DNA of 62,454 nucleotides, the filler included, from Hausera hauseri (lineage: Eukaryota), in NCBI GenBank assembly GCA_046269625.1. It is 10 parts of 10 records of this genome, joined end to end, with 100 filler letters (N's around TTAATTAATTAA, not from the genome) between each part and the next. Parts side by side here need not be neighbours in the genome. Positions count along the whole stretch, not along the records: positions 45,862 to 53,365 come from JBJURY010010788.1; 9 more parts are not named here. The stretch is one strand, 5' to 3'. Under the pieces are notes generated by a model, which saw nothing but the letters and a program-made list of their open reading frames with translations, ran no database searches and was not told the origin of the DNA. The first letter of the stretch is position 1. Each line of letters opens with the position of its first letter. Both the position numbers and the translations under genes were made by a program. Shown piece by piece: positions 13,264 to 58,439 of this stretch.

Positions 13264-13282
13264 TCGTCTGTCTATCTGTCTG

Positions 13283-13642
13283 TCAATCGAAAATCGTACG
13301 ACAACGACGTTTGTTTGTAGTTGATGAGCTCGATGATGCTCTACGGCGTATTCTCAAGAAACTGCCAGCGAATTGTTTTTTAACTGATTCAACGACTCCC
13401 GCTGCAGCGTTATTTATTTCTGACAAGGCGTGTTCCTTTAATGATGGTAAAATCGATTTGTTTTCATATAGTACATCCTGTGCTGTTTTTTCTGCCACGG
13501 TTCCAATACGTTTCAACACCCGAAATGCTAAACGTGCCAATGTACGCAACCACCCAGAGCTATACTGTTTACCAAAGAAATACAGCAGTTCACCGCCCTG
13601 CTGGTGTTTACTATAAATGGAAACTATTTCAGAATCAATCAT
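13283..13642 (-). CDS. Small basic Polinton core/membrane-lytic-type protein preceding the major capsid gene
   Basis: QQGG..YFFGKQYSSGWLRTLARLAF amphipathic N-terminus, Arg-rich C-terminus ending TIFD; position between penton and major capsid. Confidence 0.65.
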   Translation of the reverse strand: MIDSEIVSIYSKHQQGGELLYFFGKQYSSGWLRTLARLAFRVLKRIGTVAEKTAQDVLYENKSILPSLKEHALSEINNAAAGVVESVKKQFAGSFLRIRRRASSSSSTTNKRRCRTIFD

Positions 13643-27010: not shown

Positions 27011-29510
27011 CTACATCACCCCTGTGGCAAAACGAAAACTATGAAGAGAAGAAAATAAATGGAGATTATAGGAGGCAAAAGGACGAGCTTATACCTCTTC
27101 GGTTTCGGTACGTGTTAGACGTTGGACTCCATCTATGAACTTCTTCCTACTGTAAGTGCTAAACGTCACATGACGTGATCTGTTAGATGTTGCTAGTGCC
27201 TGTGGGGTTGTCCGAGGGAAAGAAGCTGTGGATTTTGTGATATTTTGGGAGGATGTTTCATGAAAAGATGAAAATGGAGAAGAAATTGAAGAGTGAAGTG
27301 GGGCAAGCGAAAGAGGCGAAACTGGAGGTGGAAGCAAATCGTGCGATGATGGTGAAGTGAGTGGTGGGTGTGCAGGCGATGACGGCAAATTGAGTGGTGA
27401 ATGAACAGTGAACGATGACGGAAGTGAAAAGGATTGATTGTGACTCGATTGCTGCGACGGCTCAAAATTATCGAGGAAATTAGATAATGGCTCGCGGGAA
27501 GAGAAATTAGAGTCAGGATTTGAAACAAAGCTGTTATCCTTGTCATCATCATTAACGAAGAATGCTGGCTTGAGATTAGAGATATGTACATTTTGAGGTT
27601 TGTCTTTGCGTAAAATAGTAGCGGTGTGCGAACAAAGATTTAGTACTTTTTAAGGGCCAACGTATTGAGGCCGAAAACCAGACGGTGAAGGATCCTTCAG
27701 CCATACAAATTTGGCTGAGTATATGTCCTCTGAAATAAGATTTGTCTTTATTTATAAGACGGAAAAAGGCGTTTGAGTTTACCTCTTTAAAGTAGGACTG
27801 TGCTGCACGAATAACTTCATCTGATGGACTTTCATCCAGATTGGAGAGCTCAAATAGTGCACGAACTGGTGTCCCAAAGAGAGCTTCAGCCGGGGCACAA
27901 CCGGTGGTAGTGGATGGCGTGTTGTGCCAACCAAGTAGGACAAGAGGAAGAATCGAGGTCCAATTACGATTGTTCTTTGCCAGGATTTTTAAAGAAATCC
28001 TCATGGTGCGGTGAAATCTCTCAAGAAGACCATTTGCTTGGAGATGGTACGGCGTCGTATGGAAGTGGGCTATCCCCAAGTGCTTTACTAGAGATTTAAA
28101 AAGATTAGCTTCAAATTGTGGACCCTGGTCCGTTATAATGTAACGTGGTGAACCAAAACGACTGACCCATATCTTAATAAACGCATCTTCTATTGACTCA
28201 GTGTTGATTGATCAAAGCGGAACAGCTTTAGGCCAGCGGGAAGCATGATCCATAATGGATAAGATATATTAATAGCCGTTGTCGGATGGCAAAGGACCGA
28301 CAAGATCCAAATGTACAATGTCAAAACGGGAGGTGCAAGGGAAGTGGTAAAGTGGTGGTTTGAGGTATTTGTGGACCTTATATTGCTGGCATGCTGCACA
28401 TTCTTTGACCCAGATCTGTACATCTGTATGCATAGTTGACCATACAACGTGGCGTTGCAACAGGCAAAATGTGACTTTTGAACCCGGACGATGAAGAGAG
28501 TAAAAGTGATTGAAAGCTGTCTTTTGTAGCAATGGAGCAAGAATGATCTTCTTGTTGGTCGAGTTGGAAGTGTTATAAGCGATGCCATCGATGATTTCAA
28601 CAGATTTGAAAGCTTGGAGAATATCAGATGATGGCTGATTGCTTCTCAGGACTTCAGAGGAAAAAAGTAGCTGAACTGTAATTGAGTTAACCGACCGCGA
28701 AAGAAAATCCGCTACTAGATTTTCAGTGCCTGAAATATATTTCATGGAAAAAGTAAATGTCGACAGGTATGATATCTGTCGTTCTTGTCTGGGTGATGGC
28801 TGTTTCAAAGTCATTATATGAAGTAGCGGCTTGTGGTCGGTTTGAACGGTGAATCGACGAAAAAGAAGCAAGTGCTTGAAATGCTTTACCGCTACAACTA
28901 CAGCCAAGAGTTCACGGTCGAATGTGGAGTATCGGCTTTCCGATTGCGTGAGCTTTCGAGAATAGAACTCTAATGGTTCATCGATGCCATTGTATATTTA
29001 GTGTAATATTGCACCAGTTGCTGTGGTAGAGGCATCTGTAGTTAATATTAGTTTGGCGTTTGGTTTTAGAAAGACCAAGGTTTCCACAGTTTTCAGACCT
29101 TCACGAAGGCGATCAAATTGGTTTACTAGATCGGGAGTCCAATGGATTTATTGTCTTTTCTTCCCAGCTGAGAGGTGTGCAAACGGTGCCGTTAGTTCGG
29201 AGCAGTGTGGGACGTATTTGTGTACGAAATGAAATGTCCCTAGAAAACTCCTCTTATCGGTAGTTGTAGTTGGAAACATTACATTTTTTAATTGTTGTAA
29301 GCGATCAGGCTGGGGTGAATGCCCTTCAGGAGTAATTATGTTGCCTAGGAAGTTTACGTGTTTCTGGAAGAGATTGCATTTGTCGAAATTAATTTGCAGG
29401 TTACTGTGATGCAATCTGTGGAAAATAATTCTCAGATGCTCATGATGTTGTTTTATGGAGCTGGAAGCGACTAATATGTCATCTATGTATGGGTGAGCAA
29501 AATCAAGTCC
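27011..29510 (-). mobile_element. CsRn1-like Gypsy, copy C (3' half: RT end, RNase H, IN, tail, PPT)
   Basis: YIDDILVAS, TTDAS, TDHKPL, HLDLVGPLP, TDQGPQF, GLLERFHR; AGGGGTGA-TGT 3' boundary like copy B. Confidence 0.92.
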
Positions 29511-30580: not shown

Positions 30581-32960
30581 TTAACCCTGTTCATGCTTGA
30601 TCCTACAAAAACGTTTAGTATATTCGATTTATTTTTGCTGACATTTTTGCCGCCTGAAATAAGAACAAGCACACCAACTGGATCGCCTACTGACAAATCA
30701 ACTTTTCAAAACTCGTCATCACACAATTTATCACCAATTACCCAGAACGATTCAAAACAGATACTTGTAAGCACATCTGTGCTCGAAACGAACATTCCTC
30801 CTGCTGACCTATCCAGTTTATCAATAAACACATGAAGTACGCAGTCTATTTTCTGTCGATCATCTCGAGCCACCAACTGGTCAATAATAAATAATTTCAT
30901 TCAGCAACAAACCGCGGCAGATAATGTCTACCATCCCAAAGCATTTCAGCAACTACATACTGTTGATAACGCTCAACTTACTGAATACGCGTAGCCTGGA
31001 GATGGTCAGCAACTGCCATCAACGAATGACTCCTTGAACCGCAAGACAGCAAATAAAATGTCAAGTGGATGTAAAACTACTATAGTTAAAATGGGATACA
31101 TGCTGCTGCGTACAACAAGTCATTAAATGAAACCGAGCCAGTAGCACTTCACCAAGATGAGCCACAGCCTCCGCACCTGGTAGTGACAGTCAGCAATCTA
31201 AAAACTCAGACTCACAAGCCAGAGCCGCTGCGTCAGAAAAAGCAGTTTATAATTGTAAAGCTGCTAAAGCCACTACTATTAAACATCGACTCTATTCACA
31301 CGAGTTGCTGCTAAGAAGCCAGCATTCCATCTTCAGACAGTGAAGATGACAATCTATCATCTGAGAACGAGGAAGATGAAGTTAGAGAGCTAGTGAATAG
31401 GAATGAAAAGCTTCGGGCTTCTCGACCACAATCTCACATATCAAGCATAGCAGCATCCCCTGAAAACAAGCAGAAGGTTCAACGTTACACTTAGCATTAC
31501 AAAAAACTCAGTAGTCGTGTGGCAGGTGTTTCGTACATTCCACCACAGATTGATTCTAGTTAACACGATCCTGTGATTGATGAAGCAAAACCACCATTCA
31601 GTTATTGCAATTATTCTTTACTGATCAATTTTTCGAGATAATTGCCTGCCAATCATCTGCATTCAATACAAGTTAAACCAGAAAGACCAGCACACATTAG
31701 TATAAGATGTCGAGCGCTGCGCTGTAATATGCGTGTTTATGTCACTAGTGAGAATGACAAAAACCCGGCTTTACTAGTCGCCTGAGTTCAGAATGTCACA
31801 GATTGCTGAATACCTGATCTTAAATAGATTTGAGGAAATCAAGAGATTCTTGCATTTTAATGACAACCTAGCAAGTTCAGGTTGACGTGACAAGCTGTAA
31901 AAAATCCGACCGGTGGTTGATCAGCTGAGAAAATCATTCAGCAAGATCAAGGCTGAAGAAAGTTTGAGTGTTTATGAACAGATTATACCACTGAAAGGCT
32001 GAAGTTGTCTTTGTCATTACAACTCCAGGAAACCACACGTGTGGTTGTAACATATGGGTCTTGTGTGGTGTGGGTGGGCATGATTGTGAAGCTAGTGGCA
32101 AAGTTGTCATCAGATTAACACGAAAACTATCACCAGACATAAATCATAAACTGTTTTATAATAAGTATTTCACAAGTGTATCTTGCAAAGAAAAAATCTA
32201 GTCGATTGGAACTGTGAGACAAAATCGTTTGCCTCAACGTACATTGAAACCCGACTCAGTTCTTAAAATGCTTAGTCGTTGTGCAGTGCATGGGAAAGTT
32301 GTCATTATGGATGGTGTTGAAATGGCAGCTATCACGTGGTTTGATAACAGGGCAGTCAATCTAATTTCAACATTCACTGGATTTGAACCACTGACTGATG
32401 TTACATGGTGGAACTCAAAGACTAAAAGTCGCGAAAAGGTGACCTACCCAAATATAGTCGCTATGTTTAACGAGCACATAGGCGAAGTTTATCTAATGGA
32501 CTCATTGATTGGTTTGTATAGAATCAAAAGTCGATCGAAGAAGTGGTGGTATCATAGTCTATTATTTCATTTTATTGACATGGCTGTCGTCAATTCCTGG
32601 CTTCTGTATCGTTGATATGCAAACACAGCTAATGAGAGAAATGTTTCTCCATTGCGAAGTTCAATTCACATGTAGCAGAAATGCTATGTAGAGCAGAAAA
32701 TCAGTCACGACGTGATCGACCTCGTGGTGACAGTGATGTTGCACATGGCAGCACTGCGTCGCAGTCATCAAAGAAAACTACTGTGACTGGTAACACTTTC
32801 GAAGGGCTTTGCTATGATGGAGCAGGTCATCAGCCAAAAATGACTGATCGAAGAGGCAGATGCAGGCTGGACAGTTGCCACGGACAATCTCGTATAATTT
32901 GTCTGAATTTCAATGTTCACTTGTATTTTGAAAGATGATTACTTTATTATTTATCATGCT
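30581..32960 (+). mobile_element. Degenerate piggyBac (PGBD-type) transposon
   Basis: NRFEEIKRFLHFNDN, KIRPVVDQLR, SVYEQIIPLKG, GTVRQNRL, WFDNRAVNLIST, FIDMAVVNSWLLYR, Cys-rich end RGRCRLDSC..RIICLNFNVHL; candidate left end TTAA-CCCT at 30581; right end not found. Confidence 0.85.
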
Positions 32961-33750: not shown

Positions 33751-36700
33751 TTGCCTCATACCCACGTTACTGTACCAGTAAAGTGCATGACGTTGGTGGT
33801 TGTCAGTGCCATGGAGCAATACTATGGCACCACAACGGTGCACAGTAAACGGGCCTGTGTATATTCCGGTTGCTCTATAGCTGATGATCAAATCAACTAT
33901 GAAAAATTTTATAATCACCACCATGGCCATTTAAAGCAGTTTAAGCGGTCAAAAAAACAAATATTAATAGACACCAAAAAGCAGCAGCAGCAGCAACCGC
34001 AGCAGTATTTCCTCAAAAAGTAGGAAACGTCAGGCATCAACAAGCCTTGACAAATACTTGCAAAACAACAGAAATTAAAAACAGCGGAAGGAGCTACAGG
34101 AACAAGAGCAACATGGGGAGGAGCTACGCATTACGGTCATGTACGATCTGAAAAAATCGTACGTGGATATAAAAGTGAACATGTCATCGAAAACAACAAC
34201 AACAACGCAATTGAGACATGTTCCATCCACTGTGCGAAACCAGTTGGAATCTGAAATGGACAAATTCCAACACAACTGCAAAGTTCAGTATTATGCACTT
34301 GCAGAATTTGGAAACGTGCAAGGTGACAGGAAACAATGGTACCTGTAACATCGAGCTGTACCATATACTGAGGATTTTATCGCTGAGATTGGCGAAAAGC
34401 TCGAGAAAATCGCCAATTACACGAAAAAGGGTAGCGGATGGCGAATTGTAAAGATTGTCACTCGGCTTCATCATTGCAAAGTCGAGTGACATGATTTGTT
34501 GGGGAGATCATTCATAGCGCCACCTGCAGCCCTAAAGCACTCTAAAACTGTAGTCAATGTTGAAAATAATAGCGACGAAGACTGTTTTCTTTACATTATT
34601 TTAGCCATATTAAAATATGACGAAGTGCCCAGAAATTGTGAAAATCGGTCAAAACAATATCGTCAGTATTTTTCCGAATTGGACTTTGATGAAAGCTGGA
34701 TGCCCATGAAACTTAAAACCATTCCGGCTTTTGAACGGCGTAATCCAACCTTTTCCGGTACAACTCAGTAAGAGATACCGGCAGATAAGGAAATTTACAA
34801 GAATCCTCACGTGGACATTATCGAAGTCTGAACCCGAATGGACGTCCAATATACCTGCTTCTGTTGGAGCAGGCAAAAAAAATTTATTACGTGGCCGTAA
34901 CAAATTTGGACACACTGCTGAACATTTTTCATAAATAGCTCATCCAAAAACAAATACGGTGAAAATGGTGCCCTATATGTTTGCATGGCTTGAGATCAGA
35001 AGCGATATGGGAAAAACGTAGCGCTATGCAGATGAAACGCATCGGGAACAACAATGTACGTCATGCTCGTCAAAAAGGAGCTGAGATTCAGCGACTGGTC
35101 GAAAACGGACAGTCCGGCATGTGGCCTATGTAGATATTGAAGCAATTCTACCGAGGCACAACGTATACGACCAAAAGCACATTCCAAACGCCGTCGGTAT
35201 GTTACTAATATCAATAAAGGCCACGGGACAACCGCAGTATTACGTATTCCATGGATTGAACTGCGTATGTGATTTCCTGCACCAGTTGGAAGCAATAGTG
35301 GAAGCGGAAATCGCACGGTGGTACAGTAACAACAGCACTAAGCCTTTGATCTGGACATACGAAGACGAACGCCTTACGTTTACAGTCACATAAATGCTAC
35401 CTGTGCCACAAAATATTACCATTCGATAAACAGGAACGGCTCGTACCTGATCACGACCACTTTACTGGACGATACACGGGAGCAGCATGCAATTCATGCA
35501 ATTTAGCACGGCATGTGCGGCTATTCCTGCCGGTGATCTTTCATAACTTCAGGGTTATGATTGTTACCATATTCTTAAATGGGCCATTAATGGATTTCCA
35601 CACTGGGAACTGTTCATAATCCCAACAACGATGGAGAGATACCTGTCTCTGTCGTCACGCATAAACCGGTTCCAGGTGTGATTCTTTGACTCATTACAGT
35701 TCTTCAATGAGTCTGTAGCAAAGCTGGCAAATGCCTTGCAGGATGTGCCGTTAACATCAACGCAGTTTCCGATGCATATTACACGTAGTAAAGGCATATT
35801 CCCGTATGACTGCTGTATCGTACGAGCGGCTTCAGACAACAGAGGAATTGCCGCCTCAGAGGCCCAGTATAACAGAAGATGAATATCGCAGAGCACAAGA
35901 ATCTTGGTCAGAACTCGGTTGCAGAAGCCTATTGGATTACATTCTCCAGTCTCTGAAACTGGACGTGTACTTGCTGGCCGACGTGTTTCAGACATTTGGG
36001 ACTAAGGCGTTGGCGGAGTTGAGCATCGGCTCTGATATCACTGGACCTGGACATTGAGCTGTTGCAAGACCCAGAAATGTACCGACTTTTTGATGTTGGT
36101 ATTCGTGGCGGCGTGACATTTGTCAACAAGCACCACGTAACCAGTGATGATAACACTGCATCACTGCTGTACATTGACATTAATTACCTGTATGGCTGGG
36201 CGCTTTCGCAACCCTTGCCGTACGGTTCATTTGAAGGGTTAACGGACAAGCAAGATCTGGAGGCACTTTTGGAAAATTTACCGAGAGCAGACACGACAGA
36301 AAACAGCTCATTCGGTTACCTGATGGAAGTTGATTTCGTTTTACCCGATGAGTTGCATGACGCTTTGGACCAATTGTCTGTCGCACCAATTAGCCAATAT
36401 CCGTTCGGCGGCTCAAAGGTGAAGAAACTCCTTATGACGCATGAACCGAAGCTGAATTACGTGGTACATTGGCGTCTGCTACAGCTCTACATGCAGCTCG
36501 GTGTACGCGTCACACAGCTGCATCGTGCAATCCGATTTGCTTAGGCTCCTATATTCAAGGCGTACATAGATGGAAATTCTGAGAAACGAGCAGAATCTTG
36601 TACAAAGTTCGATATGACTACTACAAGCTGAAAAACAATTCCCTTTACAGAAAACAGTGGAGAATCTGAAAAAGCAGCTCAATGTATGCCTATGCAATAG

Positions 36701-39231: not shown

Positions 39232-39655
39232 CTAAACATAGGCGGTTTTTCCTATATCACCAAAGCCAAATTCTTTCCGTTTATTTCGTGTTGTCGGTTC
39301 ATTGACACAAAACAGCCTCCATTGTTCCGGTGATATTACACTGAATTCCGCCTTCACACAGCAAAGAAAAACGATTTGTGCGATTGCATTGCCTTCCAAA
39401 AAAGCACACGGTTCGCCCGATTGGTTTTCCAGCAACACCTTAATTTCACCACGAAAGTCTGAATCAATGACGCCGTTCACAACCGTCATTCCAAGATTTG
39501 CCAATCCGCTTTTTGATAAAAGTTGAATAGCCAATCGAATCCCAGTCGTTATGCATTTCATTGTGCTATCCGGAATTATCGTATTGACATTGGAAAACAC
39601 ATTGTAGCCTGCACTGTTTGATCTAACACGTCTCGGTACAAAGGAATTTTTGTCT
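39232..39655 (-). pseudogene. dut: dUTPase (trimeric type), internally deleted
   Basis: TGIRL, SKSGLA, GVIDSDFRGEIKVLL, GNAIAQIV, R..GFG motifs. Confidence 0.9.
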
Positions 39656-42239: not shown

Positions 42240-42438
42240 GTCATGCATCCATTATTTTACGCATTCTATTTTTATATCACGCACATTCATTCAACCAACA
42301 TGACCACCTATTTATACACATTCACACACATATATACACTATATATTTATATATACACTATATACATCTTATGCATCCCCTATACCTCTTCTGTTGAAAG
42401 TCGACCGGATTCCCCAACTAGTCAATCTGGTTCCAACA
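42240..42438 (-). repeat. LTR fragment (third family); second copy at 45862-46079
   Basis: Shared catcccctatacctct..gttgaa..tcgaccggattccccaacta..ggttc; begins TG on the minus strand, preceded by AGGGG at ~42439. Confidence 0.65.
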
Positions 42439-43229
42439 CCCCTAGTAGTCGAGAATAAGAAAGTTCGATTGGATTGGTCAAAAATATTAGATAAAAATGT
42501 TTTGAAAGATAAATATAATTTACAGAGGAAACCTACGATGAATGTTAATAAAACGAAAGAGAAAGTTATCGAACGGTATCCGATCAACGAATTTGCAAAG
42601 AGAGAAGAGGATATCACGCTAAGTGGAGATAAAATAAAGCTGAAAGTTGTTGCACAAGATCAAGTGACCTACATGACAAGGCAAGTGTTAGTTGATGTGA
42701 TATGTTACGTTAATATTAAAATTTACCGTCACTGTTTCCCCCTTGTTTCCGTGGGTGTCGTTGGGGGTTGTATGTTTGATAAACTCAGAATGTTTGAGTT
42801 GATGCAAGTATTTAATGGTGGAATTATTCCCCTGCGGAGAGACACCGCGATAACAACGGTCGAGTATGCATGTCAAGTTAAACTTAATGTTTTTTCATAT
42901 GAGTATATCTTGGATAAGGGATATAGGGGATTTATGGGGATATATAAATTGATCTTCATGATGTTAAAACCGAGTTTCAGAAGAGACAGGAGTGATCGTG
43001 AGGTGAACGTCTGTGTGATACGTGTTCTAATAGAAAAGGAAGGGGATTTCGCGGGTAACACACAAAATTTTACAATTAAAGTGTGTTGTTTGACTCGGGA
43101 TCCTTTAATGAGGAATAATGAGAATTCAAATGGGCCCAGGGAGGAAATGATGAAAATTGCGTCAAGGGAAGAATTTTACGACGGATTGGTGGGTTGTTGT
43201 AAAAGAGATATGTACAATATATTCTATCA

Positions 43230-43445
43230 TTTCAATATAAAACATCCAGCATGGTACCTTTTATTGTTACTTCGTCCTGTTTTGCTATTGCCAATAGTGA
43301 TATATATCTGCTAAACTGGTCTATGATGGCCAATATGTATTTTTTCTTCCAGGTTTCTTTTAACGGTCCGCAAATGTCAATGTAATTCTTCTCGAATGAT
43401 TCGTTCGCAGTTAGTCTCAGGATCTCTTCATTCGTATATAGGCTG
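43230..43445 (-). mobile_element. Gypsy integrase core fragment
   Basis: ESFEKNYIDICGPLKETWKKKYILAIIDQFSRYISL. Confidence 0.75.
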
Positions 43446-44951: not shown

Positions 44952-45734
44952 TCAAATTCCCAGTAGAAAGGTAATTTTGTAACATGTGTCCCCTAAAAAA
45001 GTTTTCAAAAAAGTGTTCCAATTCTTAAAATAAATTGACGGAATGGTTTTTGATTTCTGTTTGATTCTTCGTACAAGTTGCTGTTCATTTTCGGCGGTCC
45101 AGCCATTTTCGTACACCTTAAACTTAAAGTGGGTCCAGAAGGGCTCAATTGCGCGGATCTGTGCTGCACAAAATGGAATTTTCTCTTTGGGATTGAATGG
45201 TCTTTTTTTGCTTTCCAACCACTCGAATGTGGCACAGGCATAGTGACACGAGGTTAGGTCAGGCCAAAAGATGTAATGTCTTCTGGGATAGACAATGGAG
45301 AGAAATGGTGATAAATGCTTTTTTAACCATCCATTCACGTAAATTGTAGAATTGAGAGCAAGTGAATTGGACTTGCGAATCAACAAAGAAAAAATTCCAC
45401 GCTTGGAAACGGCAGCCCAAACTAAGATTTTGTGGCTGTTTTTATCTGCTGCTGAGATGTACAAGCCTTCTTGCTGAGATCCAGTTAGAGTAAAATAGGA
45501 TTCATCATCTAACACAAGGCCGGTCCTTGAGTGTTCAACGACAAAATCCTTCAGAACTTGAATGCGCTCATCTTGACGAATGCGCTGGTCAGGTGTCAAT
45601 TTTGGAGCCTCTACGTTTTCTATAGATGATTTTCTCTTTCTGAAGTAATCTCGACGCATGTGTCTTGGAAAGATTAAATTTCCTTCCAAGCTTTCGAAGG
45701 TTTTGGCCTGTCTTTCCAATTGCAGCAGAAACAA
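44952..45734 (-). mobile_element. IS630-Tc1-mariner transposase, DD37E type (degenerate)
   Basis: LDDESYF, FWPDLTSCHY, QIRAIEPFW; 37 residues counted between the second D and the E. Confidence 0.88.
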
Positions 45735-45861
45735 GGCGTTTACAACGGCTTTCAGGCATTTNNNNNNNNNNNNNNNNNNNNNNNNNNNNNNNNNNNNNNN
45801 NNNNNTTAATTAATTAANNNNNNNNNNNNNNNNNNNNNNNNNNNNNNNNNNNNNNNNNNNN

Positions 45862-46079
45862 TTATTTACACACTCTTTCAACAATTTAACCTATAACAAC
45901 CCGATTTTTAACAACCAGTACACACAGTGCAACCAACTATGAACCCACATATTTATAAACATACATACACACATATATACACTATATATAGTTTTATATA
46001 ATTACATTATATACATCCCCTATACCTCTCGCGTTGAAGTTCGACCGGATTCCCCAACTATACAGTCGGGTTCTAGCAG
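45862..46079 (-). repeat. LTR fragment (same family as 42240-42438) abutting and truncating the glycoprotein ORF
   Basis: Similarity to 42300-42438; TG start on the minus strand at ~46079. Confidence 0.6.
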
Positions 46080-47020
46080 ATGTGCTTAGAATATGCGATG
46101 TAGTAATGTATGCCACTAATTACGAAGCGTTCTTCGTACTTGAGACTGAGACAAACGCCAAAACATTCAAGTTCGAGTGTCAAGNNNNNNNNNNATTGAG
46201 GATTATTTGAAAAATACCTACGACTATTTCTACTACAAAGGGTAGGTCGGAATTACTGAATTATACCACAAAATGATAACGAACGACTGCAAACTAGACT
46301 TAGAAGTCATGAGAACTAAACTGGCTTTAATATATGCCAATCCCGAGCTAGCGTCAGCAATAAATCCGATGAAAAAAGGCATTTTTGGTGAAGTAACCTG
46401 AGAAGTTTTACTGACTTATGAACGCGAGAAAAAAGATGTACCCATTAATGTGGAAGAGAACAGATGCATACGAGAACTTCCGGTAATATATCAGGACACA
46501 CTGAGATTAGTAACGCCAATTACTAGAGTGTTACTGGCAGATAGGTGGGATAATTACGCCGCCCCCCAAGTTAACAGGAACAAATTTAGTAAAAGGAATA
46601 ACTGATGATAAGTTTTCAGGTACTGCGGCGAAAGGTATTTACCGACCAAAAGAAGTGGAAGCATTTATACAATTTCTCGCTTTCCTACACCAGCGCACAC
46701 ATGAAATAAACAGAATTATGCATACGATACTAGAGGATTTACGTTATCAAGCGAAATGGAAATTGTTACTTGGTGTTAACTACTATCAAAGGGTGACTAC
46801 CGAAATATTGTATAAAATTTGGGAAAGGTTTCTAATATTCAAACAGGCCGCATTAGGATTTCTAGCCATATATTTTTAATTCAAGTGGTTAAAGCGATAA
46901 TACAGGAGATTATAATCGGATATGAGATATTCACTTTGATATGATTCTTATGTAAGATTTTAACAGCTACTAACACACCTTTGGGCAAGTTCTTAAAGGC
47001 GTACGAAGAAAATAGGTGGA
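46080..47020 (+). pseudogene. env: Chuvirus-like (class III, gB-type) envelope glycoprotein, C-terminal half
   Basis: ICDVVMYATNYEAFFVLE..LYHKMITNDCKLDLEVMRTKLALIYANPELA..GIFGEVT*EVLLTYE..V.INVEENRCIRELPVIY..LVTPITRVL..AKGIY..KIWERFLIF..GFLAIYF..VVKAII..IIGY follows the recalled chuvirus G motif order; mostly absent from the ORF track. Confidence 0.8.
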
Positions 47021-47617
47021 AGATGGATGTGGAACAACATGTTGGCTTCCATAATCGGAAACGTAAAAGGAGACACATATTTAGTTATATGTGCAAATTC
47101 ATAAATGTCAATACGCGAAGAGATAACTCTGACGATGATGAGCCTAAAGGAGGAGACGCCGTGTCAAGGATAAATAGGCGCAAAAACTACTCCGTTATAA
47201 AACCACTCTTACCAATATTACCGCCAACTGCACCTATATATGAAGACTTTGACAAACAATCTCTGAGTTCATATCAAACGGATATCTATAGAAAACTGTT
47301 CAGCCTTGAAAATCCCTATGAAGGAACAAAACACTACTGTATATTGCGTAAAGTCTGCCCCATATTGTCATTCAGCAGTGGACTATCACGGTATAATTTA
47401 CTTTCCTAGAATACCTAGGCCGAATAAAATACGATCAACATTCTCAAGAGACCAGGAGATGCATAATTTCAGGGACCCAGAAATACAGCCGCCAGTTGGA
47501 AATCTGTAAACGAGAAACGTCAATTGCACGAACAATAAACTGTATCTAAATGGAGAGATAAGACAGCTAATCGACCAGCCGGTCGCAACCACTGAAGTTA
47601 GAATAAACGGCTATAAG

Positions 47618-50600
47618 GTGTCAACGATTCAATGTTCAAAAATGGCACCAAATCACTATGGTACTGTAGTCGAAGGTAGACCATTCGCGAAAATTCAGTT
47701 GGAAGATTGTGAAGTCCTCGCGTTAATAGACACGGGATCCGAGATATCCCTGATTAAGCACGACTCAATACCGCAGTTTCTAAGGAAACCACTATATCCA
47801 CCTCCAACAACAGATCCATGAAGTATTGAAGCTTTTGGACAGTCATCGAAAAGCAAATTCCGATGTAAGCCAGAAATTCACATAATAGGACAATCATTTC
47901 ATCACGAATTTTCAGTAATAGAACAGTTAACAGACGATGTAGTCTTAAGATGTGATCTGTTGAAACAATTACCCAATATAGCAATAGACTACCGTGCAGG
48001 GGAATTAATACAGCTCGGTCCGATAAAGGGAGTTAAAACCACCAAAGATAGGTAATTCGGAGAAATATGGATTCCAGTGAACGAGAACATTCCGCCGAGA
48101 ACCGAGGTATTAATATATGCTCAGATAAGTCAAGACGACGACCAACCGGTGTATTTTGAACCGAAGGAATCATGAAACCAAAGTATCGTACTCAGTAACG
48201 TATTAACAAGAGTATCGACTGGCCGTGTACCCATTAGAATAGCTAATAATTCACTTACCCGATCAAACTGTATGCCAATACAACTTTGGGATATACGTAT
48301 AGAGTATCGTCAATAATTATTGAAGAAAAACCTTACAAATGTGCCAAGTTCCCACCCCATGTTGAAACTAAATTTTCGTCAGAAACATACTGTCTATTTT
48401 ACGAATTGCCTTGTCATTATTGCTCAGTCATCGCAAAAGACAAAGGAGACATTGGCAGAGTAAAAGCCTTGAGTCTAGCAATTCCATATAAGAAAAAGCC
48501 TGGCTCCGAAATGGTATCCTCCTCCGCATTCATGATGTCGGACGTAACAAAGGAAGTTGAACGTATGTTAAAGTCCGACATAATCAGACCAAGCTGTAGA
48601 TCTTGGTACTCACCTATACTCATGGTCAAAAGAAAAGGTACTACAAAGCATCAATTTTGTATCGATTATCGAGCGTTAAACACACTTATGATGATAGATT
48701 CCTTTTCTTTGCCATCAGTAAAAGAAGCCCTCGATAGATTTGCTGGAGCTAAATGGTATACTACGCTCAATCTGCAATCCGGATATTGGCAAGTGCAAAT
48801 ACAAGAAGACGATCTCTACAAAACTGCGTATAAAACACACGACGTGTATACGAATTTAATGTCATGCCATTCGGGATAACTACTGGACCCACTATTTTTA
48901 CTCGAATAATGAACAAGATGCTAATGGGATTGGAACATGCGTTCGCATATCTGGACGACGTAATGATTGCATCGAAGACAGAAGAAGAACATTTAAAAGA
49001 TAGTGAAGACACGCTTATGAGAGTTGAGCAAGCTGGATTGAAATTGAATACCAAGAAATGTAAATAAGCTCAAAACGCTGTATCTTATATTGAACATATA
49101 GTTGGAGAAGGAGGATCGAAACCCGATAAATCATTATTAAGTAAGATATCGAATTGTATGGAACCCCAGAACCAAAAAGAGTTGAGACATTGGTTAGGTT
49201 TATGTTGTTATTACGCCACTAATATATCAGATAATTCAAAAATAAATGCACCTTTGTATCGTTTACTTAAAAGTCAATTAAATGGAAATGGACGGACGTA
49301 GAACAAAAAGCATTCGACGAAATGAATAAAATGTTAACCACCGAACCCGTTTTAAGATAACCTGATTTTCACCTACAGTTTATAATTAAAACGGATGCCA
49401 GCAAAGAAGGCATTGGATATGAGTTAGCACAGAAACGATAGGATTAAGAACTAGAACACTCAATCATATACGGTGGACGATCACTAAAGAAGGCTAAAAA
49501 GAATCATTCGGTCACGGAATTTGAAACGTTGGCTGTGAAAGAAGCCGTACGACACTTTTACGTATACGACTACGGACAAAAAATTATAATTATTACGGAT
49601 CACAAAGCAGTTAAAACTTTGAAAGGTAGGGCAAACAACCCAACATGTAGACTCAACCGATGGATCGAAGAGATCTCAAGGCATAACATTAAATTTCAAT
49701 ACAAAGCCGGAAGCAAACATGTTGATTCTGCTGCACTATCAAGGCTTAAAACTAAAACAAACACAGTTACTGTAATGAGAAAAGCTCAGCTCGAAGAACT
49801 AGTAGACAGACAACGAGCTTTCACATTGGATAAAGCAATTAAAATTTCTGCTGAACAAAGGAAGGACAAATTATACAACAAATCGTTGAGTTTGTCGAAA
49901 AGGATATAACACCGAAAGGACACAAATTACGGAAACATTTGCAAAAACATGGTCACATATATTCCATAAGAGGAGACACGGGCCATGATAATGTACTGTA
50001 TTATGAGCGGAAAGGACGGAAGTTGGTAGTGATACCAAAAGGATTACGCACGAGAATACTAATGGACGAACATGACATATACTTAGCGGGACACATGTCG
50101 TGGATGAAGACACTAGAAAAAATATTCAATAAATATTACTGGCCGAGCGTGTACATTGATGTGAGAAATTGCGTGAACGCTTGCGAAGTATGCGCAACCA
50201 AATAGAAGAAAATGAAAAACTATATTCCCGAATTTAAACCGATAAATGTGCCAGACAGACCGATGCAATCAATATCCATGGATATCGTAGGGCCGTTGCC
50301 TACAACACGCAAAAACAATAAATACATTCTGACATGTATAAATCGATTAACTCATTTTGTCGAACTAATGGCCCTAATGGACCAAAGGGCAGAGACTTTG
50401 GCAGAAGCTGGGATAAGGAAAATGATCTTTAAATACGGACCCCCAAAGCCAATTTTGACAGACCGAGGAAGAAACTTTACGAGTGAACTAATCGAAAAAA
50501 TTACCAGAATATTCGAAATTGAAGGACTAACGACGACAGCTTATCACTCTCAATTTAACGGTATGGTTGAACGAATGAACGCGACAGTGATACGAATCTT

Positions 50601-51030
50601 GTCAACCGTTGTGGCGAAAGATCAAAAGGATTGGGATAAATTTTTAGAAGGAACGTAATTTGTCATAAACACTACAGCACATCCTGCAACATGTCTTTTT
50701 GATGTAGGTATGATATCCTATTCAGTGAACACAGAAGATGTCGAGCAAAACTTTGTCGAAGAATTACAGTCGAAACTACAGCAATGTTGGAAAATAGCCA
50801 AGAAGTTATCTAAAGAATACCAGGGATAATTTAAAAAGCAATACGACAAAAAAGCTAAACGGCACGCAAGGTACATCTCTGAAACTCACTCGGACGGGCA
50901 GAGGACCTTACGAAGTTATCAGAACCACACTGACTACAGTTTATATTAATAAAAATGGCAAAGAAGAGGTCGTATCAATATATAGAGTAGTTAAAACGGA
51001 AATAAGGCCAAATAAACGCTACAATCTGCG
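47618..51030 (+). mobile_element. pol: Gypsy family-2 pol (PR, spacer, RT, RNase H, IN), degenerate
   Basis: ALIDTGSEISLI; FCIDYRALN, LNLQSGYWQV, MPFG, YLDDVMI; IKTDAS, ITDHKA; H..AGH..C..C zinc finger; SMDIVGPLP, LTDRGRNF, GMVERMN; GPY. Confidence 0.93.
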
Positions 51031-51074
51031 TTTGGGTAAGGGAAATCCAAGTCAAACCAAGAAAGAAAAGAAGA

Positions 51075-51640
51075 CGTCATTGATAGTAACCAGACCGATA
51101 TCATATTCACAAATAATTCTTGCACTATCGCTAATCGCTTCGTATATACCAAAGGTAAAAACACAATGGACAATGGATTTAGTAGAAGATATCCACGGAG
51201 TTATGCCACATCTCCCAACTGAAAAAGAACAACATGCAGAAAGACAGAAAGACATACAGAATTTGCAGTCACTCAGAGTCTACGATATGAATTGGATCAA
51301 ACCCTGTGCCTGGTTTAAGGAAAGCGAATTTGTTAAGAACCACGTAAAATTTGGACAATAAGTATTGTACCCAAAAATACTGTCGGTACTGTTTAGAAAC
51401 GTGGACCTAAAAAATGAGAAAACGGCCTAATCAATATGTATAGCGGAAGCTGCCAGACTAAGATATTTCTCCAATGGAGAAAGTAAAAAGATAGTTGAGA
51501 TGTTTCCCAAAAAACCTACCACTATTAACCATTTTGACCCGCGATCTCCACGAGATGAATCAGATTCAGAAGCGGACATACGCTGACGAATGAACCGTTT
51601 ACGCGTCACCTATTCTGATGCAATGGGCACATCTAAGAGT
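51075..51640 (+). pseudogene. Post-integrase extension starting with a signal-like hydrophobic segment (short version of the contig-1 cargo)
   Basis: TSLIVTRPISYSQIILALSLIASYIPKVKTQW in frame after RPNKRYNLR; homologous to 3600-3480. Confidence 0.55.
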
Positions 51641-51659
51641 GCCGTTCAGGGAGGATAAA

Positions 51660-52380
51660 TGTTACAAAATGGACGATTGCGAAATACCGTGTACAAGTTT
51701 GTAAATGAATAGAAACGAAAGCGAAACTTAAAGTGAAAATTGAAAGTGAATTAATAAACAAATTTCAATTAGAAATCGACTAATTCATTGAATTGTTCTG
51801 GAAAAATACAGAAATTTACTGAAAATTGACACACCAAAACAACTAACTACCTGTAGTTAATCAGAACTAACCAATGTAAAATGAGAAAAGTCCAGAGAAA
51901 ATTAAAGAAAATCTCTACCAGGAAAATCCTGCCTACAAGTGACTATGCAAATGCTATGGCACAGTCTCCAGTTGTAGTTGTGAATGGACTCTTGTAATTT
52001 CTGAAATTGATTGTTGAAAAGAAGACTTGTAATCGGACCTACTAATCGATTTGATCGTGTTGATTGTCAGATATTATTTTATCGGTATTTTTTTCTTATT
52101 GTCAAAACAATTTATGTCCTTAAAATTCTTAATAGTTTCCGTCTCTCCTTACGAGGGACTAGTATCACAATAAGTGTTTAAAATTCATATTAAAATCTAT
52201 AGCTAAGTCGAGATTTTCGAAAATTCGCAAGCAACCGCACGCAGCACACGAAATATAAAATCAGTGCAAACATTCTAACGAGAACGTTAGAACTTATCTG
52301 CTAAATATGTATAAACTTTCAACAAGTTTCAATATTGTTATAGTTGGATGTTGGATAGGGCCCACATTCAACTACTAACG
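51660..52380 (+). repeat. Putative ~720-bp LTR of Gypsy family 2
   Basis: Starts TGTTAC right after the purine tract AGGGAGGATAAA (51648-51659); ends ..ACTAAC just before the PBS; no second copy in the window. Confidence 0.7.
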
Positions 52381-52382
52381 TT

Positions 52383-52399
52383 TGGCGACGCTAGCAGAA
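52383..52399 (+). promoter_or_regulatory. Primer-binding site, resembling the tRNA-Arg type
   Basis: TGGCGACGCTAGCAGAA between the LTR end and gag; tRNA identity is tentative. Confidence 0.65.
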
Positions 52400-52618
52400 T
52401 AATTTGTAGTTGCTAGACTTTGAATCTTAGTGAAAAGTAACGACATATTAGCGATCAGCGCTACCACATCGAATAATAGATTATAGAATTATCTGAGACA
52501 AATTTAGTTAATATTGAACGTATTGTTTTGAACGCTGCTGAACAACCTATAGAATTTAAAGTTTCTGAGGATTAGAACTCGTAAGTTAATTAAGCAAAAT
52601 TTAATAAACGTTGAAAAC

Positions 52619-53365
52619 ATGGTCGAAAATCAAGTTGTAGCACAGAAGCTGGACATGTTTACATTTCAATCTCGGAATCTGCCGGCGTACGACGGAGACC
52701 CAAACGGACTTAATGGAATTTTGCTAACTTATAAGCTGCACGCAGAAGGTGCTGGACTCGCATCTAACGTAATGATTAAACATTTTTTACTATATTTGAA
52801 GAATTTGGCCGCTGATGTCTATAGTGAACTCACTGATGACGGAAAGAAAACTTGGTCTTTCCTGGTAGGAGCCTTAAACCGAAAATTATTGCCGACGGCA
52901 ACTCCGCAACAAAAGCTCATAGACTTTTAGAATGGGGTGCAACAGAAAGGTGAATCGATAACCCGGTTTGCATTTGCATTAAAGAAACTTGCTAATAGCT
53001 ATGTGAATACTTTAAGAATAGCAAAAATAGATAAGGCTAAAAGTGACTCAGAGAATAAAGCCACAGAGAAGGCAATCCCTCCAGATTTGGACGCCATGAT
53101 AATGAAGCAGTTAATAAATGGCATTTGGTCTAGAGATATAGCGAAACAGCTGATTTTAGCACGATCAGAAAATTTTGACAAAACCCTGCAGTTATCTTAA
53201 CATTTAGAATTGGCACTGGACAGATATGCAAGAAACAATGATAGAAACGATAGAAACAATGATCGAAATGATTGTAATGATAGAAATCGTAATGATAATC
53301 ACGGAAGAAGTGATAGGCAATTTAATCGAAATTATGGACATAGAAATCAGAATGGTAATAATGAC
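52619..53365 (+). pseudogene. gag: Ty3/Gypsy gag (capsid) with an NDR-repeat tail, truncated by the contig end
   Basis: LPAYDGDP..LYLKNLAADVY..TW..L..AL..K; QQKGESITRFAFALKKLA; QLINGI. Confidence 0.85.
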
Positions 53366-53499: not shown

Positions 53500-54316
53500 T
53501 TGGCTTACTTCCTTCCCCCCGATGACGTGTCCTCTTCCCATTCGACAGTTTCACTTCCCCGCGATGACGTGTTCTCCTCCTATTGGCTTCCCTCTTTCCC
53601 TGGGGGGGTTTGGTGTGAACTCCTCCCTTCCAGCTACTTATGTGGTTCTTTTCATGGTCCAGCCAAGTTTTGGGGCTTCCCCTTTCTTACAGATGGTTCA
53701 AGTAACATTATATAATAGCCTTCCCTTATTGTATGAGGTCTAAGTTTTTTGTCATACTGATTTCTGTATTGTTTCTGATAATCTAAAGTTAATAACTGAG
53801 CCAGTACCCATGCTTTGGGCAAACTTTCTTTTAGATATTCGACGTAGTTAAGTTTATAAGTCCTTAATGATTCATCAAGAATCCTCTCCAAATCTCTTGG
53901 CAATAATATTCCTTCCATTCATTAAAAAGGGTGGTAGTTGTGTGGCTGAATGTGGTGCTGTTCTTAAACCAAACATGCAAGCGGGGCTATATGAATCCCT
54001 ATCGTCTTATCTATCATTTGTAACTGTTGCTAAAATTGATAGTAACGGACCATTAAGTTTTTGGATCATACCATAACAACATGGGTGGTACGCTACTGTC
54101 TTAAGCTTATACATGAAAAACAATCTGCATCCGTCTGAAAACTTTTTTAACAAATTCTGTACCCGGATCCGTTAGAGTTTTCTTCAGCCTCCATATCAAA
54201 ACAATTCCCTCTATGAATAGTGCGTCTACCGAGAATGCTGACTTATCTGCCGTAGGAAAAGCTTCAGGGAACCTTGTTAAATAATCAACAAAAACCAAAA
54301 TATATTGATTGATCAA
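53500..54316 (-). mobile_element. Integrase fragment of another Gypsy family
   Basis: YILVFVDYLTRFPEAFP, LTDPGTEF, AYHP, YRNQYDKK, LAGP. Confidence 0.8.
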
Positions 54317-54319
54317 ATA

Positions 54320-57300
54320 TGCTTTACGACAAAACTAAATGTAGATAGGTACGATATCTGTCCTTCCTACCTCGGTGATGGCTGTTTCAATGACATGATA
54401 TGCAACAGGGGCTTGTGGTCGGTTTGGATGACAAATGGACGAGATAGGATAAGATGCTTGAAATGTTTTACTGCCAGAACTATGGTTCACAGTAAAGTGT
54501 TAAATAATGGCTTTCTGGTTGTCTGAGTTTTCGAGAGTAAAATTCTAAGCATTTGTTGACGCCGTTGGAAATCTGGTGTAGTATTGCACAAGTAGCTGTA
54601 GTCGGGTTTTGGATAGGCCAGTGTTTCGACGGTTTGTAGGCCTTTGCGTAAGTGTTTGAATTTGATGACTAAATTGGGAATCCACTGGATTAACTGCATT
54701 TTCCTCCCGAATGAGAGATATGCGAAAGGTGCTGTAAGCTCAGAGTAATGCGGTGCATTTTTATTGACGAAATGTGGTGTGCCTAGATAACTCCTCATAT
54801 CTGTAGTGGTCGCTGGTAGTTACATTTTTCAATTGCTGTAGTCGATCAGGATGTAGAGAATAGCCGTGAGGAGCAATGATGTGGACTAAGAAATTGACAC
54901 GTTTTAAAAAGAAGTTGCACTTGGAGAAGTTAACTTGTAAGTTGCTATGATGTAGTCTGTGAAAAATAAGTCGGATATGTTCATAGTGTTGTTTGACGGA
55001 GTTGGAGGCAACTAATATGTCATTAATGTACGGATCCGCAAAATCAAGGCCTGAGAGAACCGTGTTGACGTGACATTGAAAAGTTTGGGCTGCCTTACGT
55101 AAATGGAATGACATAAAGATTTATGCGTAAAGGCCGAATGGAGTGATGACAGCAGTCTTTGGAATGTCACAGGGTACAACGGGAATTTCATGATAGGTTT
55201 TGTGCAAATCTATTGTGGAATACGTATTGCTGTTGTTAAGACTGTGCAGGAAGTCCTTTGTAAACGGTGATGGGTAAGCATCCATGATGGTTAGATTGTT
55301 TTCTTGACGGTGGTTGTCATATGGTTAAAAAATACAATCCTTTTGCTACTACGTGTAATGATGAGGCCCATGGTGATTTTGACCTCCGAACGATACCAGA
55401 TTTTTCGAGTTTGTTAAACTCTGATTCCACGACTTTTCATCTACAAGGAGATAATGGTATCACCTTTTTTCTGATAGGTCTTTGATGTTGGGCGACTATG
55501 TGGTGATAAGTTGTTGATGGGGCTTAAAACTAGAGTCCTTTTTGAATATGCGAGAACAAGAAGAAATTATGTAGCATTTGAGATTGGAATCTAGCGATGA
55601 AAATGATTGAGGCGGTTGCTGTGATTGGCGAAGAACGACCGACATCGCTACCATGAATATTTAGTTTAGCCGACTGTTTCAAAATCGACTTGGATATGTT
55701 AGATGTAATAGAAAAAGTAGATAAATTACTAAATGTATCGTTATCAACCGAAGAATATTTTGTCTAATTCACACATGAGATAGCAGATAAAAACAACGAA
55801 GTGCCTGTTGGTCTGTTTGATAGACAACTGTTAACATTTACGACGGAGTTTCTGCGTAGTAAACAGCCATACTTGCAATCAACTAGCGGATGTTGTGCGG
55901 CCAAAATGTCTGAGCCGATTATGGGCGATTTAATACTGTCCACGCGGAATTTCCAAAAAGAATGTCTAATGAGTTTAAATATGTAAAAATCAGTTCCGTG
56001 GTACCTTCAATGCGCAAAGGTTGACCGCTGACAGTGAAAAGCAATGGAGAAGAAACTGCAATGGATGTAGAGACGAAGGACAAAGGAAGGGGTGAAGAAG
56101 CAGCTCCTGAATCGATAAGAAAATCTATATGTGAAGCATTGGTAGAGAACAATGCAGCTTTTAACAGAAAAACTGCGAAGGCAGTGTTAATGCGGCCAGA
56201 ATTATGAGTGGTATTGCCTATTCCAGAATGTGCCGTGGCATCTAGCGGCGTTTTTAGCTTTTTGAAGATTGTGGAGAAAAGAATGTGAGTGATAAGAAGG
56301 AGGAGGATGAGAAGAGGACGAAGAAAAACTGAAGTAGTTTTTGTAGTGTTTACATCTCGGCACACACGATCGGGCTCGAGACAGAAAATTTGTGTGATAC
56401 ATGCAGATAGGGCTTTCTACCGCAAAACGCTTGTCATAAAATATGCAGCCAAAGAGACATTTCTGTGCGTCTCTGCGAAATTTATTGTGATAAAAATACA
56501 TCATTCGTCCTCCCGGAGATTACTTAGTTGGGCCATGATGGTTAAAACTGAATGTTGTAGAGTATTTTATTGTTTCTGATTAATTGTACCTGCTGTGCGA
56601 AAACAGTTGTAATTTGTAAAATTTCAAAACCTTTATCACCCAGTAAAGCAGGTTCGTTGACGAAAGTAAGGAGTGCCCTGAAGGAAGTGGGCAAAGAGGA
56701 GAGGAAATAACGACGATGGAAATATGTATTGTTGGTGGGAGTAACGCCAAGAGCACTTAGCTGTGAAATAGGGGTACGCAGAAAGTCAGAAAATTTTTAA
56801 ATGCATGTAAGGTGCTAGTTAAAGCATTTCTGTATTATATTATCAATCTACTGCTCGGTAGCATGAAGAACAGATTCATAAAGCATGTCGTATGGTGTTG
56901 AAGACGTAAAATATCAGCAAGATTATTGATGTGATGCTTGATATTTGCTGGAAGAAGTAACAAGCTGTTGGCGCGCAAGAAAGAATCGGCAATATGATTG
57001 GCTTTAAGCCATTGTAAATGGAACTGAAGCTACGTGCGGCTTGAATTAGTTTTATCGAGGAAGAACTCTGTGCAAGGAAGGTTAGGAGAAGCAGATGGTG
57101 TAAAGTCAGCAGGGCGACATCCAGATCTGATTTTGATGGAATTTTCTGAAGAAGGATCAGGGTCTTAACCTCCCCGAATATGAAAGTAAAGGGTGAAATG
57201 AATGATCGGAGAAGCGAAGGAAGAAAGTGAGTCAGAAAAATGTAGAACAGAACCGTAGTGCCACAGATAAAATTCGAAAGTGTGTAGAGAAGAAGATAGA

Positions 57301-57493
57301 GAAGTATAAAAGGTGTATGCAATGTCTGTGTTTCTAGTGTGTATGGTAGAGATGTGTGTATTATTTTTATAAACAAAAGAAAGGGGTTGAAGAGTTCCAG
57401 GGGCGTGTTGGGGCGCTGGGCGCGGGTGCACCCAGGTTTCCGGCCAGGCGATGTTCGAGCCGCATAGCCTCGAGGCAGTCGCCAAAACCGATC
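54320..57493 (-). mobile_element. CsRn1-like Gypsy, copy D (5' half: Ubl-gag, PR, RT, part of RNase H)
   Basis: HFTLYFHIRGG*DP; two CHCC-like fingers; FLIDSGAASS; AAQTFQ, YINDILVAS; TDHKPL. Confidence 0.9.
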
Positions 57494-58439
57494 CTTGATG
57501 GCCAATGTTCATCGCAGACCGGTCAAGTGCTTCGTATATGTCAATAAGTTCAAAGAGTCGTGGATGTTTAATTAACCACACTTTATATTTCGAATAACCA
57601 TAGAAAGAATCGGTATAAAAGGTATTGTGAATTTGGTTATTCTAATNNNNNNNNNNNNNNNNNNNNNNNNNNNNNNNNNNNNNNNNNNNNTTAATTAATT
57701 AANNNNNNNNNNNNNNNNNNNNNNNNNNNNNNNNNNNNNNNNNNNNCTTTCAACAAATTATAAATATAATTTTTTTTCAACTTATTTTTCGTCATAAACG
57801 AATAATGAATAGCTACAAATCTAAATATCAATGTAATGTACATAGCAAATAAGTACCAATGAGTTTTGCGCAGATAATTCACCCGATCTTTTTAGAAAAT
57901 TCCAGAAACTCAGCCCAGGCATCTCGTTTTAATGAAATCAAAATACGCGATTAATTCGTACGCGATTAAAATCGCACTAAGAAACCCTGAAATCACATTT
58001 TTGGTACCTCCATCGATAATTCGAGGTAGTTCCATATTAAAATTTCGGACAGTCTCAGCATCGGTTGAGGCCTGTTCTCATTCAAATTTTATATTGTGTA
58101 ATGAGTACCTTTTAAACTTTAGAACCACCCTTTACTTGCAGTAAATCAATGATTTTGTTGCTCTGAAGATGAATGGTGAGTTCATTTTAAATACTCGTAG
58201 AATTTAAGTGTTTTATGTTTTATAAGATTTCCGCACACAGGGATCTTTTTGGCTATTCAGTCTTTCAACCAGTTCATCAGAGCTCGTTCCATTTTAACCA
58301 TATTTACATGCTGTGCATGAGTCACGCGCTTCACACCTGACGGGCAACCACTTGCAAGTTTTTTTTTCGTTTTATTTTATAGCCCGAATTGTAGATTCAT
58401 TTAAATTAAACGATTTTGCTATAGAGGATATTTTTTTGC

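Follow-up and report, generated by a model that had tools for sequence, protein, structure and literature searches.

Does an envelope gene (env) that lies upstream of a retroelement's protease reflect the native order of the element, and are the two made as one protein? This question is raised by a locus of the Hausera hauseri genome (assembly GCA_046269625.1) at positions 45862-53365 (contig JBJURY010010788.1) of the stretch of DNA that we analysed (the window; 62,454 nucleotides (nt) joined from parts of ten records). The element reads on the + strand throughout, with no spacer between contigs inside it and a single gap of 10 N at 46185-46194. An initial annotation had proposed a gag-env-pol layout in which Env and Pol form a polyprotein. 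Our analysis bears out this order in intact relatives and makes it very probable that the copy in the window is dead, lacks its 5' part and belongs to the Ty3/gypsy GAG-ENV-POL errantiviruses that carry a chuvirus/gB-type envelope, as reported from Schmidtea; its intact relatives are single chains.

Successive Pfam matches, all on the + strand, place the glycoprotein first and retropepsin, reverse transcriptase (RT), RNase H (RH) and integrase (IN) behind it, as the initial annotation had read the order from env to protease. The retropepsin (protease, PR; 47675-47972, Pfam RVP, E 6.3e-6) contains the motif LIDTGS, with its catalytic aspartate at 47729. It is followed by a broken RT (48418-49271, Pfam RVT_1, YLDD at 48948) that is 38-46% identical to the env-first relatives described below, and by a broken RNase H (49289-49747, Pfam RT_RNaseH, E 7e-16) that is colinear with relatives by tblastn. 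The integrase (49993-50910), also broken, comprises an H2C2 finger, the core (Pfam Integrase_H2C2 and rve, and tblastn) and a GPY-type motif read from the sequence. Judged by Pfam scan and colinearity, this PR-RT-RH-IN order is that of Ty3/gypsy elements (Metaviridae), and Pol is about 40% identical to its best relatives. Neither the window pieces nor the 14 env-first relatives match a BEL-Pao-type Pfam family.

The glycoprotein occupies 46079-46828, where a chuvirus/gB-type (class III) fusion protein is represented, in broken form, by the C-terminal half of its ectodomain. Pfam Monjiviricetes_fusion (PF24664) matches it at 46195-46599 (E 2.8e-8, above cut-off) and again, under the curated cut-off, at 46514-46876 (E 6e-5); with a profile built from relatives, the match reaches weakly as far back as 46079. 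The fragment is 44% identical to residues 696-807 of the relative P0007. Behind it, 46829-47000 encode the membrane anchor and an amphipathic segment, which are colinear with relatives by tblastn up to 46894 and continue in a second frame from 46879. The fold class is seen through another relative, P0015, whose model (22-sequence alignment, predicted local distance difference test (pLDDT) score 70, predicted TM-score (pTM) 0.39) speaks for the relative's fold and not for that of the window fragment. Its best fold matches are chuvirus glycoproteins (Tacheng tick virus 4 G, E 5e-40 at 20% identity) and, among solved structures, herpesvirus gB (varicella-zoster or herpes simplex virus, VZV/HSV; E about 1e-12). 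Over whole chains, the model reaches TM-scores of only 0.25-0.47, as would be expected of a flexible monomer. The class III glycoprotein half with a transmembrane region that the initial annotation had recognised is thus borne out by the Pfam match on the window and the fold of P0015, and the fragment belongs to the HSV/gB type of fusogens. The likeness to chuvirus G and herpesvirus gB is one of fold class, as modelled for P0015. In their own viruses, these glycoprotein genes are free-standing, whereas the fusogen of the present family lies inside a longer retroelement chain. A sequence search of the Protein Data Bank (PDB) with P0015 returned no glycoprotein, only weak Bcl-2-family matches to the first 80 residues. 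Residues 9-80, just before the glycoprotein signal, match Bcl-2 weakly (Pfam E 1e-3, below cut-off; PDB E about 0.01), and the N-terminus of P0008 resembles this stretch by eye; possibly, an anti-apoptotic domain has been captured here, between Gag and Env.

Upon close examination, the window copy proved to be dead. Its glycoprotein homology starts at 46079, the first base past a foreign repeat (45862-46078, + strand) that takes the place of the N-terminal half of env. This repeat is not part of the element and is long terminal repeat (LTR)-like by its CA end; it is 77% identical over 176 nt to 42269-42438. The two copies, 45906-46078 and 42269-42438, both end in CA and resemble the LTR end of another element; the latter copy leads into a 336-codon open frame at 42304-43314 that has no Pfam match. 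The reading frame changes near 46545, near 46877 and within 47270-47409, and in-frame stops lie at 46243, 46399, 46942 (amphipathic segment), 47507 (linker) and 47819 (protease). With three frame changes and five stops before 48000, the "few lesions" of the initial annotation undercount the damage. Frame changes also interrupt the conserved parts of env, RT and RNase H.

Intact relatives answer the question of gene order. A search of 1.84 billion representative proteins with the 46195-46599 piece gave 40 matches, and a second search with the env-protease part of the best match, limited to 1444-4598 residues, gave six, three of them new; 21 of the first 40 and all three new ones were scanned with Pfam. 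Among these 43 proteins, 14 carry the glycoprotein and then a protease in one chain (the env-first chains), 28 end less than 100 residues past the glycoprotein match and one is spurious. Every chain that extends at least 100 residues beyond the glycoprotein has a protease there (14 of 14, none without). All 14, among them the closest relative, P0007, cross the env-protease boundary without interruption, seven of them reach integrase, and the window is colinear with the env-first chains from env through integrase by tblastn. The gag that should precede env is lost in the window copy; CCHC knuckles stand ahead of the glycoprotein in eight of the 14 chains, and gag of the same family lies behind the LTR candidate discussed below. 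The relatives thus hold the glycoprotein between Gag and protease, where the rival expectation had been copies with gag directly before the protease. Both the gag-env-pol order and the single Env-Pol chain of the initial annotation are borne out by these proteins; for the window copy, we infer the Env-Pol fusion from its relatives only. The source record of P0007 assigns it to a bacterial metagenome-assembled genome, most likely through eukaryotic contamination of the bin. In seven of the 14 chains, there are two to four protease-like domains; such sets were noted in P0008, P0009, P0010, P0011, P0014, P0032, P0047 and P0048. In P0010 and P0048, one protease-like domain lies even behind integrase, and C2H2-like fingers are seen by eye near those of P0009 and P0010.

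Alternatively, the window's env could stem from the 3' end of an adjacent gag-pol-env element, joined by chance to an unrelated pol through a deletion. We asked where each half of the copy belongs. In a phylogeny built from two env pieces (227 columns) and 30 sequences, among them the complete set of 14 env-first chains and 15 of the 28 short matches, the window falls beside P0007 inside the env-first group (support 94/91). This group also holds three chains ending at or soon after env, and its long members all carry a protease behind env. The comparison set for Pol came from an integrase-based search limited to 469-2000 residues, which excludes long env-first chains; its 22 matches are 32-40% identical, and none has the glycoprotein family. 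Against eight env-first and these 22 env-less Pols, the best scores for the window's RT and IN pieces go to env-first chains, which take the top 5, 7 and 4 places. The RNase H piece, by contrast, scores best with env-less Pols, and in a partitioned Pol tree (eight env-first Pols and those 15 of the 22 env-less ones that have RT, all of them database proteins), the unconstrained topology gives the window a long branch that lies, without support, outside the env-first clade. These two results, together with a linker unlike those of the relatives, are what a chance join would lead one to expect, and they weigh against our reading. The grouping of the window's Pol with env-first chains is nevertheless not rejected, neither with the six core chains (delta lnL 0.9, approximately unbiased test p-AU 0.56) nor with all eight (delta lnL 15.8, p-AU 0.14), in a test for which the program warned of few replicates. 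In addition, a signal-like segment and a candidate polypurine tract and LTR follow pol, with no env there, and the downstream gag is of the env-first family. The env tree, the Pol scores, the unrejected Pol grouping and the env-first type of gag together strongly disfavour a chance join, and the gene order does not appear to be the product of a deletion.

If env natively precedes pol, Env could still end at its own stop, and a +1 frameshift, splicing or internal initiation could then yield a separate Pol. The stretch between the two genes in the window (env tail and Env-protease linker, 47001-47674, + strand) offers some footing for this idea. Here, the env-tail frame closes at 47407 and the protease frame opens at 47270, giving a 140-nt overlap (47270-47409), and ATG codons in the protease frame lie at 47318, 47459 and 47642. 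The relative P0015 stops about 30 residues past its anchor helix, and Chary and Hayashi (eLife 2026, PMC13524379) tolerated as much as 2000 nt separating ENV from POL. The frame change may be a lesion or a natural boundary, and the sequence is compatible with both. Yet a copy with so many lesions, including frame changes in conserved env, RT and RNase H, is expected to have one more, and P0007 and the 13 other chains run through this boundary. We therefore consider a separate Pol unlikely and the single chain the more probable native state. The termination of P0015 also counts against the single chain, as do the following points. Protein libraries list open reading frames (ORFs), and separate env ORFs could hide among the 28 short matches. 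One of these, P0045, has RT-RH ahead of its glycoprotein half, the sole case of the opposite order. Two scans of a prokaryotic genome collection found no intact DNA locus, and none of an intact copy was recovered. From the start of the anchor at 46829 to the catalytic aspartate, the window measures 900 nt (300 codons), which is long; the relatives span 128-388 codons, and only two of the 14 exceed it. Finally, the window linker shows no tblastn similarity to the relatives' linkers and carries the frame change and a stop.

What lies in this linker? Beyond the anchor and amphipathic tail, it comprises about 230 codons, somewhat more than the roughly 200 first proposed. The initial annotation found no LTR, primer-binding site (PBS) or capsid between env and protease, and repeat, pattern and Pfam scans are all empty there: comparison of the contig with the window and itself revealed no repeat between the two genes, the PBS-like patterns that were scanned for had no match between them, and Pfam found neither a capsid nor a zinc-knuckle family on the linker pieces. 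The proposed CPYCH is present in no single frame of the sequence as it stands, only in the repaired reading; as a nucleocapsid-like knuckle, it was ruled out for this reason and for its lack of CCHC spacing. The PTAP motif, by contrast, is present (47224-47235) and matches its consensus. Motifs of the YPxL, PTAP and PPxY types are consensus motifs for ALIX, Tsg101 and Nedd4. Across the relatives, the prevailing motif is not PTAP but YPx[L/I], which eight of the 14 linkers contain where shuffling would give 0.15, with only two more among 28,485 residues outside linkers. P[TS]AP occurs in two of 14 linkers (0.05 expected by shuffling), the two being close kin, and PPxY in two of 14 (0.43 expected by shuffling). 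The PTAP of the window has a shuffling probability of 0.0013, calculated post hoc. The linker of this family is thus enriched in late-domain-like motifs, chiefly YPxL, which makes budding through the endosomal sorting complexes required for transport (ESCRT) plausible; YPx[L/I] might instead be a marker of the cleavage region. Two points temper the enrichment: the counts are non-independent, since the relatives share ancestry, and the window linker has no YPxL despite its PTAP.

To see how such a chain would sit in membranes, we turned to its hydrophobic segments. A hydrophobicity scan covered 13 of the 14 env-first chains, six of which run well past integrase. These full-length chains have segments at four places: one precedes the ectodomain, one closes it, a third follows integrase and a fourth lies close to the C-terminus. 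All four pass the threshold in five of the six, the last segment of P0027 being marginal; the sixth, P0007, shows three, and its first segment was found in a separate scan. Small residues and the start of the ectodomain follow the first segment, reminiscent of a signal-peptidase site. Between ectodomain and protease, the relatives have exactly one membrane segment, and this single anchor fits the cytoplasmic placement of Pol that the initial annotation had proposed.

The two segments behind integrase enclose a second putative ectodomain. In the five chains examined, it comprises 100-265 residues, of which 4-7 are cysteines, and has 1-4 glycosylation sequons; in P0048 and P0049, integrase is followed by a different domain that is shorter and cysteine-rich. 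Two relatives' second ectodomains give fibronectin-III leads, with scores of 0.88 and 0.89 that fall under the 0.9 mark, and Pfam fn3 had no match on whole chains. Among 7171 candidates of 30-2034 residues, no homologue of the second ectodomain reached E 0.01, and a single-sequence model was unusable (pLDDT 33). The domain may possibly be fibronectin-III-like. That this likeness is a lead only, and that the second ectodomains are scarcely similar to one another, tells against our reading.

Traces of the same region are found in the window. Behind integrase, a signal-like segment (51098-51151) and what little is left of the second membrane protein, without anchor (together 51098-51658, + strand), are 44% identical to a sister copy; the segment is under the hydropathy threshold and was placed by position and homology. 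The sister copy itself (2168-4247, - strand), on the contig at 1-4247 and likewise broken, shares 65% nucleotide identity over 655 nt with the main copy and retains, by tblastn, the integrase end, a signal-like segment, a cysteine-containing ectodomain, an anchor (about 2345-2261) and a tail. Its similarity to the second ectodomain of P0047 is weak (E 7e-5 in a 10-sequence set). Past the sister copy lie two ORFs (1749-1108 and 856-26) without Pfam match.

Combining these observations, we tentatively propose a model for the intact element. In intact relatives, one frame encodes Gag, signal segment, gB ectodomain, anchor, linker, PR, RT, RH, IN, signal segment, second ectodomain, anchor and tail, in this order. 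The chain would be threaded four times through the endoplasmic reticulum membrane, in the fashion of a flavivirus polyprotein, with Gag inside, gB outside, Pol inside, the second ectodomain outside and the tail inside. Host signal peptidase would release the N-termini of both ectodomains, Gag would be tethered through the first signal segment, and Pol would remain on the fusogen's cytoplasmic tail until the element's own protease releases it. Because a single chain is threaded and then cut, Gag, Env and Pol would arrive at the budding site 1:1:1, without frameshift or splicing. There, budding would draw on ESCRT brought in by the late-domain-like motifs of the linker. For the second membrane protein, we suggest a role in attachment, because gB-type fusogens often depend on a partner protein. 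Taken jointly, the four-pass topology, a fast-evolving and often FN3-like attachment protein, cleavage by signal peptidase and one to four proteases of the element's own, and late domains located on the Env-Pol linker and not in Gag make a possible but tentative picture.

The 3' end of the window copy bears on a further explanation of the gene order. A candidate polypurine tract at 51648-51659 was read from the sequence, and a strict purine-tract pattern did not return it. A candidate LTR with TG start and near-inverted ends (51660-52380) and a primer-binding-like site (52383-52400), both also read from the sequence and on the + strand like the tract, follow. No second LTR copy and, by tRNA scan, no tRNA are present in the window, and the primer 9-mer of the site is not in the PBS table of PMC13524379. 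Troyka, which has CG...CG ends (PMC12440569), was ruled out by the TG start. Next comes a gag of the env-first family (52619-53365, + strand), in which the capsid part precedes an N/R-rich stretch cut by the contig end; it has no Pfam match and hits five of 65 stored proteins at E<0.05 (best E 8e-10), all of them env-first relatives. The contig thus runs from half an env through pol, a single LTR candidate and a PBS-like site to gag, where it ends, an order that a one-LTR circle opened inside env, or a true env-pol-gag element, would also produce without tandem copies. However, the relatives' single chain has gag before env, which excludes env-pol-gag as the order of the family, and the foreign repeat that cuts env accounts for the 5' end without permutation. 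A permuted origin is accordingly very improbable. The candidate LTR may be shared by two tandem copies, with gag as the start of the second, or else gag belongs to a permuted element.

This rare env-before-pol layout has already been published and is not new; the window adds one dead member. A continuous gag-env-pro-pol ORF is reportedly described by Sacco et al. 2022 in J Gen Virol. In PMC13524379, GAG-ENV-POL gB-type errantiviruses are reported from Nematoda, Bryozoa and Platyhelminthes, and the flipping of env and pol is credited to Sacco et al. 2022 (doi 10.1099/jgv.0.001739), on non-canonical nematode endogenous retroviruses. Schmidtea mediterranea errantivirus 1-6 (C1a type), as described there, share with the present family the Ty3/gypsy pol and a gB-type env between gag and pol. 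By eye only, the domain I-II sequences given for Schmidtea resemble P0007 and P0047, and their ends resemble window 46079-46140, whereas the nematode and bryozoan sequences in the supplement are unlike these relatives by eye. Since domains I-II are mostly missing from the window, its likeness to the Schmidtea C1a type rests on this eye comparison of relatives. Unlike the Schmidtea elements of that account, the window copy is dead and divergent. The main text of PMC13524379, as far as accessible, does not contain the terms 'polyprotein', 'fused', 'single ORF', 'fibronectin', 'late domain' or 'ESCRT', and its 'transmembrane' passages concern the env ectodomain only, mentioning ectodomains flanked by two transmembrane domains. 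We found no mention of a post-integrase membrane protein, a four-pass topology or late domains in the linker in the searchable literature, and figures or Sacco et al. may cover them. Anakin is also an LTR element with a chuvirus-like glycoprotein, described from mosquitoes; it is a BEL-Pao element, in contrast to the gypsy-type Pfam families of the window's pol (Dezordi et al. 2020, PMC7642597).

The remaining contigs of the window hold further remnants of retroelements and transposases, which points to a eukaryotic and probably invertebrate source. A different LTR retroelement family is present in four copies (5364-10312, 18434-23212, 27089-29510 and 54315-57641, - strand), in which PR follows gag immediately and the glycoprotein has no match. 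An ORF at 39232-39654 (- strand) encodes a dUTPase (Pfam E 7e-16), and 32202-32615 (+ strand) is a piece of a piggyBac-type transposase (Pfam DDE_Tnp_1_7). By eye, 44952-45761 (- strand) resembles a Tc1/mariner transposase, without Pfam match. The ORFs at 12197-13353 (- strand) and 36023-36544 (+ strand), also without Pfam match, resemble a Polinton/adintovirus capsid and a piece of protein-primed DNA polymerase.

In retroviruses, Env is translated from its own spliced message, and far less Pol than Gag is made. The value that the present locus adds lies in the anatomy of its relatives, an apparent single four-pass polyprotein with a second glycoprotein. This chain seems to yield Gag, the class III fusogen, Pol and the second membrane protein in a 1:1:1:1 ratio, with the membrane topology sorting them. 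Planarian env-carrying elements with up to 215 near-identical copies are listed in PMC13524379, and given these multi-copy elements, the reading is testable in planarians. If true, it would represent another construction of an enveloped reverse-transcribing particle, one that combines flavivirus-like expression with a herpes-like split between fusion and attachment, and it would hint at how a captured gB-type fusogen acquires a receptor-binding partner.

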